DNA of 7,870 nucleotides from a virus (IMGVR_UViG_3300029490_000143), one strand, 5' to 3'; counted from the first letter of the stretch, positions 5,633 to 6,968 are shown. Notes: a model not told the origin generated them from the letters alone. Made by a program: numbers and translations.

Positions 5633-5640
5633 CATATAAC
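5633..5640. repeat. Target-site duplication CATATAAC (left copy) of the IS256-family insertion
   Basis: The 8-bp sequence CATATAAC directly abuts the left IS terminus and is repeated at 6961-6968 directly after the right terminus. Confidence 0.7.
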
Positions 5641-5679
5641 GAGCCTGTAAATAATTTTGTGTAATTGCTTTTCATCAAT

Positions 5680-6891
5680 TTAAAGGTGATTGCTTAAGCG
5701 GTCACCGAATTCAATAATAAAGCGGCTCATGGCTAAACGCCAGTCGCGAATCGGCATATTCCACTTTTTAGATGCTGCATCAATGGCCAGGTAAATCACT
5801 TTACGTACAGAATCATCCGTTGGAAAGACTTTACGCTTTTTGATCGCCTGACGTATTACGCTGTTTAATGATTCGATCGCATTGGTGGTATAGATGGCTT
5901 TGCGTATCTCGGCTGGATAAGCAAAGAAGGTATTTAGATTCTCCCAGTGTGTACGCCAGCTTTTGCTGATCTGTGGGTACTTGTCATCCCATGTTTGGGC
6001 GAATTGATCCAAGGCCATCAAGGCTGCCTCTTCAGTAGGTGACTGATAAACGGCTTTTAAATCCTGAGTGACCGCCTTGTAATCTTTCCATGATACGTAT
6101 TTCAAGCTGTTACGCAGCATATGGATAATGCACAGCTGGATATGGGTTTGCGGGTATACGCTGTTAATGGCATCAGGAAAGCCTTTTAGTCCATCCACAC
6201 AGGCGATCAGAATATCCTGCAACCCTCGGTTTTTAAGCTCAGTCAGGACATTCAGCCAGAACTTTGCACCTTCATTCTCAGCCATCCACATGCCGAGCAG
6301 TTCTTTCTGTCCATCAAGATTAATGCCTAAGGCAAGGAATACAGCCTTGTTGATAACACTGCCATTATGACGGACTTTAACTACAATACAGTCCATATAG
6401 ACGATGGGATAGAGTGCATCCAGCGGACGGTTTTGCCATTCAGCGACTTGCTCCTTAACAGCATCAGTCACCTTGGAAATAAGCGTTGGCGATACATCAG
6501 CATCGTACATTTCTTTGAAAGTAGCCACGATTTCACGGGTAGTCATGCCTTTGGCATAAAGGGATAGAATTTGGCTATCCATTTGCGTGATACGAGTCTG
6601 ATTCTTTTTAATTAGCTGTGGCTCAAATGTGCCATCACGATCTCGTGGTGTGGTGATCTCAATCTCACCATCATCGCTCAGCACGGTCTTACTGGAATAA
6701 CCGTTACGAGCATTTGAACCGTTCTTACGAGCATTCTTTTCATGTCCGAGATGTTCGGTAAGTTCGGCATTGAGAGCCGTTTCAACAGTGAGTTTAGTCA
6801 ACAATCGGGTGAATTGATTGAGATCGTCTTCTGTTTTGATTCCTTTAGCAAATTCTGCTGCAAGGTCTTTTAGTTTTTGTTCGTTCATCAT
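5680..6891 (-). CDS. IS256-family (mutator-type) transposase
   Basis: Start at the ATG (6891) that follows GGAG on the - strand, giving MMNEQKLKDL... of 404 aa; the longer track ORF from 6936 is an extension. The central region YPIVYMDCIVVKVR...GINLDGQKELLG...ILIACVDGLKGFPDAI...QLCIIHMLRN fits the IS256 DDE pattern. Confidence 0.85.
   Translation of the reverse strand: MMNEQKLKDLAAEFAKGIKTEDDLNQFTRLLTKLTVETALNAELTEHLGHEKNARKNGSNARNGYSSKTVLSDDGEIEITTPRDRDGTFEPQLIKKNQTRITQMDSQILSLYAKGMTTREIVATFKEMYDADVSPTLISKVTDAVKEQVAEWQNRPLDALYPIVYMDCIVVKVRHNGSVINKAVFLALGINLDGQKELLGMWMAENEGAKFWLNVLTELKNRGLQDILIACVDGLKGFPDAINSVYPQTHIQLCIIHMLRNSLKYVSWKDYKAVTQDLKAVYQSPTEEAALMALDQFAQTWDDKYPQISKSWRTHWENLNTFFAYPAEIRKAIYTTNAIESLNSVIRQAIKKRKVFPTDDSVRKVIYLAIDAASKKWNMPIRDWRLAMSRFIIEFGDRLSNHL
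6102..6173 (-). pseudogene. Decayed astA (EAST1 enterotoxin)-like frame embedded in the transposase gene, +1 frame
   Basis: The - strand from the ATG at 6173 reads MPLTAYTRKPISSCALSICCVTA then TGA (6104-6102); past the stop the same frame reads NTYHGKITRRSL. This aligns along its length with EAST1 as I recall it (MPSTQYIRRPASSYASCIWCATACASCHGRTTKPSLAT). The EAST1 Cys24 position is a stop here and Cys17 and Cys27 are substituted. Confidence 0.4.
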
Positions 6892-6960
6892 GTTGCCTGA
6901 CTCCGTTGTGAATATGAACATAGCAAATTCAGGCAATTACACAATTTAATTTACAGTCTC

Positions 6961-6968
6961 CATATAAC
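6961..6968. repeat. Target-site duplication CATATAAC (right copy)
   Basis: Identical to 5633-5640 and immediately adjacent to the right IS terminus. Confidence 0.7.

Follow-up and report, generated by a model that had tools for sequence, protein, structure and literature searches.

The IS256 family of insertion sequences (IS) comprises elements of ~1.2-1.5 kb that encode a single Mutator/IS256-type DDE transposase with a conserved D, D, E triad, end in imperfect inverted repeats of roughly 20-40 bp, and duplicate 8-9 bp of their target. One of them, ISAba42, was reported as a new element of 1,320 bp, with a transposase of 403 residues, terminal repeats of 24/28 bp and a direct repeat of 8 bp, found in Acinetobacter baumannii CC15 strains and on plasmid pACI-3bd5 of Acinetobacter sp. 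ACNIH1; the same report mentions Escherichia coli S43, and gives 95% amino-acid similarity between the ISAba42 transposase and that of ISEc39 (PMC7643966). Here we describe an isoform of ISAba42 in a 7,870-bp stretch of DNA catalogued as viral (IMGVR_UViG_3300029490_000143; the whole stretch is referred to below as the window), where it lies between the gene for the antiterminator Q and an intrinsic terminator of a remnant lambdoid prophage.

Other described systems bear on this locus. ISCth4 of Clostridium thermocellum, known from transpososome structures (6XG8, 6XGW and 6XGX), shares with the window element its family and all three catalytic acidic residues, but its homology is distant, its host is Gram-positive and its terminal repeats are different; by analogy, it is the best structural and mechanistic model for the presumed copy-out/paste-in movement of the window element. 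The insertion site resembles the Q-dependent late switch of lambdoid phages (lambda, 21, 82 and DLP12, whose Q is QuuD). In its canonical form this cassette consists of the Q gene, the late promoter PR', a Q-binding element with a sigma-dependent pause element, a terminator, and the late genes (bioRxiv 10.1101/651190).

Results

Structure and identity of the element

The octamer CATATAAC occurs exactly twice on the plus strand of the window, and both copies directly abut the same 1,320-bp segment (Table 1). With the boundaries fixed, the probability that two 8-bp flanks agree by chance is 4⁻⁸ = 1.5 × 10⁻⁵. The ends of the segment are imperfect inverted repeats: of 28 positions, 24 agree between GAGCCTGTAAATAATTTTGTGTAATTGC at the left end and GAGACTGTAAATTAAATTGTGTAATTGC, the right end read as its reverse complement (binomial chance probability 2.4 × 10⁻¹¹). 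The boundaries could also be set independently of this locus, as full-length copies elsewhere start and stop at identical bases, and 21 distinct 8-bp duplications (the CATATAAC of the window and 20 others, drawn from the other loci compared and from two further look-ups) abut the same termini. Because more than 20 other copies with these termini are flanked by duplications, the boundaries and the 8-bp duplication are properties of the element and not a coincidence of the locus. The duplicated targets are 66% A+T, and a strong consensus was not seen among them. The element is 43.3% G+C, compared with 49.6% for the remainder of the window. Its length, its ends and its duplication all fall within the ranges given above for the IS256 family.

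A few full-length copies elsewhere lack an 8-bp duplication (loci L018, L032 and L033). In the first of these, from Acinetobacter towneri (2545-3864), the element stands between ggtttcaa and tttcaata, so that the repeat is limited to 6 bp and is offset. Such cases could result from recombination between copies or from ends that differ slightly.

The sole long open reading frame (ORF) of the element runs on the minus strand from an ATG at 6891 to a stop at 5680; PGAP (NCBI) places the start one codon later, at 6888, giving a protein of 402 residues (WP_032028744.1). The product matches Pfam Transposase_mut (PF00872, E = 3.8 × 10⁻¹²²) and the NCBIfam model for IS256 family transposases (NF033543, 435.6 bits against a cut-off of 150), and aligns with the ISCth4 transposase (PDB 6XG8) over residues 8-398 (E = 4.2 × 10⁻¹¹³), with D167, D233 and E340 identical in both. 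The element therefore has the single DDE transposase and the catalytic triad that define its family. An earlier note, written from the window's sequence alone, had proposed a recent IS256-family insertion with a perfect 8-bp target duplication, matching imperfect terminal inverted repeats and an intact transposase; family, duplication, repeats and an intact 403-residue DDE ORF are all borne out. To judge by its sequence, the window copy is complete and apparently active.

We call the element an ISAba42 isoform because pACI-3bd5 has a single IS256-family element, with which the window copy shares 99.5% identity over positions 1-1320, and because every published descriptor of ISAba42 fits the window copy. 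The window variant is ~0.4-0.7% removed from Acinetobacter copies and 100% identical to those of E. coli S43 and of Enterobacterales plasmids, and its host here is Escherichia. ISAba26 was considered as a name and set aside: it is reported at 1,318 bp (PMC12893667), and ISAba42, with 1,320 bp and 24/28 repeats, fits better. E. coli has an IS256-family relative of its own, with ~76.7% nucleotide identity to the window element, present as full-length elements of ~1,314 bp in 66 of 5,426 complete E. coli genomes and as partial matches in ~400 more. These are presumably ISEc39, the resident E. coli element of the same family and similar size; at ~76.7% they count as a different IS by the usual criteria.

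Table 1. Features of the window around the ISAba42 insertion, in order of position.
Feature	Position	Strand	Basis or remark
ybhJ, aconitase family	16-1245		Pfam
ybhC, pectinesterase-like	1479-2762	-	Pfam
Lambda-type integrase	2897-3967	-	Pfam
Excisionase	3945-4163	-	
Antiterminator Q gene, 125 aa	5182-5559	+	PF06530, E = 2.5 × 10⁻⁵¹
Segment from Q stop to insertion, 81 bp; expected location of PR' and Q loading	5560-5640	+	inferred from position
Left target-site duplication copy, CATATAAC, 8 bp	5633-5640	.	one copy only in empty sites
IS256-family insertion sequence, ISAba42 isoform, complete	5641-6960	transposase on -	1,320 bp
Terminal inverted repeat IRR, transposase 3' side, GAGCCTGTAAATAATTTTGTGTAATTGC	5641-5668	.	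24/28 against the other end
Transposase gene, 403 aa and stop; DDE triad D167, D233, E340	5680-6891	-	Pfam, NCBIfam, ISCth4 alignment
Terminal inverted repeat IRL, transposase 5' side	6933-6960	.	
Right target-site duplication copy, CATATAAC, 8 bp	6961-6968	.	
Intrinsic terminator, 9-bp stem, 6-nt loop, U7; likely tR'	6986-7016	+	fold -14.9 kcal/mol, z = -3.1
Lipocalin (Blc-like) 3' remnant, phage-borne, last 50 codons	7043-7194	-	Pfam Lipocalin_2, NCBIfam Blc
IS2 end, terminus TGGATTTGCCCC; second ORF, OrfB (integrase core), runs off the window edge	7195-7870	-	NCBIfam TnpB, Pfam rve

The empty site and the age of the insertion

We reconstructed the site as it would have been before insertion by joining 5241-5640 to 6969-7200. 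Many complete E. coli genomes contain this sequence in one piece, identical at 626 of 626 aligned bases (100%); 571 records agree with it at 99% or more. E. coli AR_0369 (L001) has an exact copy of the 27-mer predicted for the empty junction, GTTATTATCATATAACAGCTTGTTTCC, which holds a single CATATAAC. The uninterrupted cassette is also carried by viable phages, at 99.7% identity in IdasGreatGrand and at 91.9% in 1H12 and Lambda_ev phages. If the repeat had predated the IS, the form to be expected would be a tandem CATATAACCATATAAC with no IS; the empty sites show a single CATATAAC instead. The earlier note had predicted the empty site and had named a pre-existing tandem repeat as what would speak against its proposal; the prediction is exact, and in neither the 571 records nor the viable phages does CATATAAC pre-exist in tandem.

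The 5,426 complete E. coli genomes all lack the IS at this site, and a 28-mer spanning the insertion junction was found neither among the other loci compared nor in JGI metagenome contigs. The two duplication copies do not differ from each other, the IS does not differ from copies in unrelated replicons, and the flanks do not differ from empty sites; because there are zero differences in all three comparisons, we regard the insertion as recent. The recency put forward in the earlier note is thus upheld by complete identity of element and flanks and by a site that is unoccupied in all complete E. coli genomes searched.

Distribution of the element

Full-length copies that are 100% identical to the window element are found in the chromosome of E. 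coli S43 and on plasmids of Enterobacter kobei, Citrobacter freundii, E. roggenkampii and E. coli. The E. kobei plasmid is of type IncFII, and the E. coli plasmid pRT18-1_294k_tetX, of type IncFIA/IncFIB, carries tet(X). Copies at 99.3-99.6% identity lie on plasmids of A. lwoffii, A. baumannii, A. variabilis, A. indicus, A. pittii and Acinetobacter sp. ACNIH1. Searching 185,579 species, represented by one genome each, for the 28-mer terminus returned 28 stretches, nearly all from Acinetobacter (A. indicus, A. variabilis, A. faecalis, A. towneri, A. lwoffii, A. pseudolwoffii and unnamed species), with up to five per chromosome; the exceptions were Morganella psychrotolerans and one short Stenotrophomonas contig. 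Copies at 99% or more occur in 1 of the 5,426 complete E. coli genomes, at a site other than that of the window, and the assembly collection lists the exact transposase in 251 blocks, some of them from chromosomes of ~50% G+C. The element's native genus is Acinetobacter, and the exact variant of the window has spread in Enterobacterales. An IncF-type plasmid is a plausible donor or vehicle for the copy described here.

Several chromosomes of ~50% G+C (CP095382.1, loci L042-L044; CM130037.1, loci L047-L048; and locus L046) hold multiple 100%-identical copies, every one with an 8-bp duplication of its own, and lacZ and lacY are present in one of the chromosomes. These copies hint that the Acinetobacter element is still expanding among hosts of the Enterobacterales.

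Elsewhere, a 100%-identical copy stands in a shared context, between ataaatattttg and taaaaaacaggc, beside a glycosyltransferase and autotransporter pair and with no target duplication (L003, L004, L014 and L041; the IS is at 1501-2820 in L003 and L004). This context is common to E. kobei and E. coli plasmids, Morganella psychrotolerans and chromosome CP056396.1, which suggests one mobile module that moves the IS between Enterobacterales, together with a rearrangement at one end after insertion.

The Q-to-terminator region

The IS lies 81 bp past the stop codon of Q; another 25 bp separate it from the terminator stem, or 17 bp when the right duplication copy is left out. Without the IS, the empty site measures 129 bp from the Q stop through the terminator. 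The locus thus has a Q gene and, shortly downstream, an intrinsic terminator on the same strand, and the placement of the insertion between the two, as claimed in the earlier note, is correct. The terminator is conserved in phages IdasGreatGrand and 1H12, and a search of Rfam at this locus gave nothing beyond a sub-threshold match caused by the terminator hairpin. Late genes do not follow the terminator within the window, where the next gene, for a lipocalin, is cut by IS2 at 7195; in intact relatives, holin, endolysin and spanin genes lie ~3 kb downstream. The window shares with the lambdoid switch the Q gene, a short intergenic region and an intrinsic terminator, with lysis genes downstream in intact relatives; it differs in the opposite-strand lipocalin after the terminator and in that its cassette belongs to a dead remnant.

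The Q protein is distantly related to Q21 (PDB 6P18/6JNX, E = 1.9 × 10⁻⁸) and is 87% identical to QuuD of DLP12 (L060, 5148-5531) by BLASTP, with the divergence clustered in residues ~77-115, in the C-terminal third. The DNA after the Q stop is completely unrelated to the corresponding DNA of DLP12. From the sequences, this looks like a swap of Q and Q-utilisation site (qut) specificity within one Q family. Because the downstream DNA is unrelated, homology to QuuD gives no help in placing the promoter.

The segment between Q and the insertion is conserved in viable phages. A promoter scan gave a weak candidate, TGGAGA-18-AATAAT at 5531-5560, and promoter-like sites no more numerous in the region than in shuffled sequence; a lenient scan added another weak candidate, TTGCTG-17-TAACAT at 5572-5600, and one more, for three in all. 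The IS would stand at about +74 of the leader if transcription began from the first of these, and at about +35 if from the second. Pausing occurs at positions +16 to +25 in lambda, 21 and 82, and at +35 or +74 the IS would be beyond these positions. A conserved -10-like motif, TATTAT (TATGAT in 1H12), lies at 5627-5632, 8 bp upstream of the insertion point, and on its sequence is a possible sigma-dependent pause element; if that is true, the pause site itself would be displaced. A literature search with 12-mers of the intergenic region yielded nothing relevant. The earlier note had further placed the insertion where a lambdoid prophage would have its Q-utilisation site and late promoter. As a matter of position this stands, since the IS lies 81 bp into the 129-bp cassette, with two qualifications: a search for the late promoter and qut gave weak sigma-70 matches and no confident location, and the prophage is a non-functional remnant, so that the position has little biological consequence.

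IS256-family elements as recurrent neighbours of Q genes were considered and dropped: the copy of the 76.7% relative in E. coli P19_598 is frameshifted and sits beside a gene annotated "sigma factor-like HTH protein", but its surroundings are an IS-rich island, with no Q gene next to it, rather than a prophage late region.

Prophage context

The arrangement int-ybhC-ybhJ is the classical lambda attachment site; it is very common in E. coli, and the integrase protein is listed in 25,569 blocks. Homology to the lambdoid nin region starts abruptly at 4261, inside ninE and directly after the int-xis block (window 4164-4320), so the whole early region (exo, bet, gam, N, cI, cro, O and P) has been deleted, with the loss of recombination, immunity and replication genes and the joining of a truncated ninE to the int-xis side. 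After this joint come ybcO and rusA, both recognised by Pfam, then ylcG and Q, followed by the IS.

In the empty-site genomes and phages the lipocalin gene is complete, at 525 nt; homology to them stops at 7194, where IS2 follows. The IS2 transposase matches TnpB of NCBIfam at 505.9 bits and also Pfam rve; the other end of this IS2 copy and its target duplication fall outside the window. Intact relatives have, in order, Q, the terminator, the lipocalin gene on the minus strand, ybgA, a gene for a helix-turn-helix protein, and then holin, endolysin and spanin genes. Intact prophages and viable phages encode the 174-residue, Blc-like lipocalin on the opposite strand, in the interval that separates the Q terminator from the lysis genes (L001, 6475-6999; L010, 4268-4792; L011, 4267-4791). 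In DLP12, nmpC fills the slot that the lipocalin gene fills in these relatives.

Among complete E. coli genomes, none combines the joint at ~4261 with IS2 at 7195 or has the exact joint alone, and the ORF that fuses IS2 to the lipocalin is not on record elsewhere. The prophage is a dead remnant, either already so when the IS arrived or since then. In the ybhJ-ybhC intergenic region (1248-1476), sub-threshold Rfam matches to naRNA4, of REP/BIME type, reach 57.1 bits against a gathering score of 59.5; repeats of this kind are typical of the E. coli chromosome.

Discussion

Taken as a whole, these observations are best explained, we are highly confident, by a recent transposition of ISAba42 into the Q-terminator cassette of a remnant lambdoid prophage, the element being native to Acinetobacter, its donor likely an IncF plasmid, and the insertion most likely neutral. 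By analogy with IS256 and ISCth4, the DDE transposase would bind the 28-bp terminal repeats, and staggered cuts 8 bp apart in the target would give rise to the duplication. On this reading a copy of ISAba42 recently entered an Escherichia chromosome and duplicated the target CATATAAC, within the 129-bp Q-to-terminator cassette of a lambdoid prophage at the lambda attachment site beside ybhC. The insertion comes between the presumed late promoter with its Q-loading region, on one side, and the terminator with the DNA beyond it, on the other. Because the early region has been lost and the gene past the terminator is truncated by IS2, an insertion here would most likely have no consequence.

Several points weigh against parts of this account. 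That the element is active, and that it moves by copy-out/paste-in through a circular intermediate, is presumed from its family. The name ISAba42, assigned from sequence comparison, depends on the published carrier plasmid and descriptors and not on an alignment to the ISfinder reference. PR' and qut are not placed, and the sigma-70 matches score only 7-9 of 12 at best, with no enrichment over shuffled sequence. Finally, neutrality is what we infer from the present state of the locus, and the early-region deletion, the IS2 insertion and the ISAba42 insertion could have come in any order.

That the flanks and ends might deceive, with a pre-existing CATATAAC repeat and a coincidental match between the inverted repeats and hence no discrete product of transposition, is conceivable in principle, as an A+T-rich word of 8 bp could recur by chance in A+T-rich intergenic DNA and as many other 8-bp families of two-copy repeats lie within the same 1.6 kb. 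Yet the empty sites hold exactly one CATATAAC, with the flanks joined as predicted, and more than 20 other copies fix the boundaries, each with its own duplication; together with the low chance probabilities of the duplication and of the inverted repeats, this refutes the coincidence, to which we give practically no credence. It is almost as hard to believe that the IS was collapsed or misplaced in assembly: multi-copy IS elements are often misassembled, but a misplaced repeat would not carry a precise 8-bp target duplication at the exact termini of the element. A real but old insertion, inherited and fixed as a marker of its lineage, is unlikely. The source lineage is absent among the genomes searched, so that fixation in an unsampled clade is possible, and the locus has evidently undergone other changes, the deletion and the IS2 among them; against an old insertion stand the zero differences over 1,320 bp from unrelated replicons, between the duplication copies and over the 626 bp of flanks, and the vacancy of the site in all complete E. 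coli genomes searched.

A recent insertion could also have had a functional effect, by uncoupling Q loading from the terminator and late genes and so blocking late (lysis) expression, or by sending antisense, Q-modified transcription across the transposase gene. The IS does lie inside the Q-to-terminator cassette, just downstream of the conserved TATTAT that is a candidate pause element; its transposase gene is antisense to the expected late transcript, and a terminator scan found no terminator-like site on the plus strand inside it. But the early region that would drive Q is gone, int-xis being joined to a truncated ninE at ~4261, the gene past the terminator is cut by IS2, the lysis genes of intact relatives are 3 kb further on, outside the window, and the promoter is not identified, so that we consider such an effect quite improbable. 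An outward hybrid promoter at the IS ends was considered and rejected: both ends carry TTTACA, and on manual reading a suitably spaced -10 was not found in the flanks. A more speculative extension, which we rate as a long shot, would have ISAba42 at an early stage of invading Enterobacterales, with one 100%-identical variant on IncF plasmids, in multi-copy chromosomes and here; the transposase, lying antisense to a Q-dependent, terminator-resistant late transcript, would then have its transposition modulated by the Q of the prophage, or else the element would prefer promoter-proximal leaders just upstream of terminators.

With recent and most likely neutral transposition as the preferred explanation, the finding is of an already known and named IS, from a well-understood family, at a new and unremarkable site. 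In itself the insertion matters little, being a textbook IS insertion of a named element into a defunct prophage. The locus illustrates how cryptic prophages gather successive IS hits, here ISAba42 and IS2, along with deletions, and the insertion gives the source lineage a clean strain-specific marker, useful in typing or in the dating of events. Further, the element comes from Acinetobacter, is rare in E. coli and is present as the same variant on E. coli, Enterobacter and Citrobacter plasmids, and so marks a transfer between bacterial orders.

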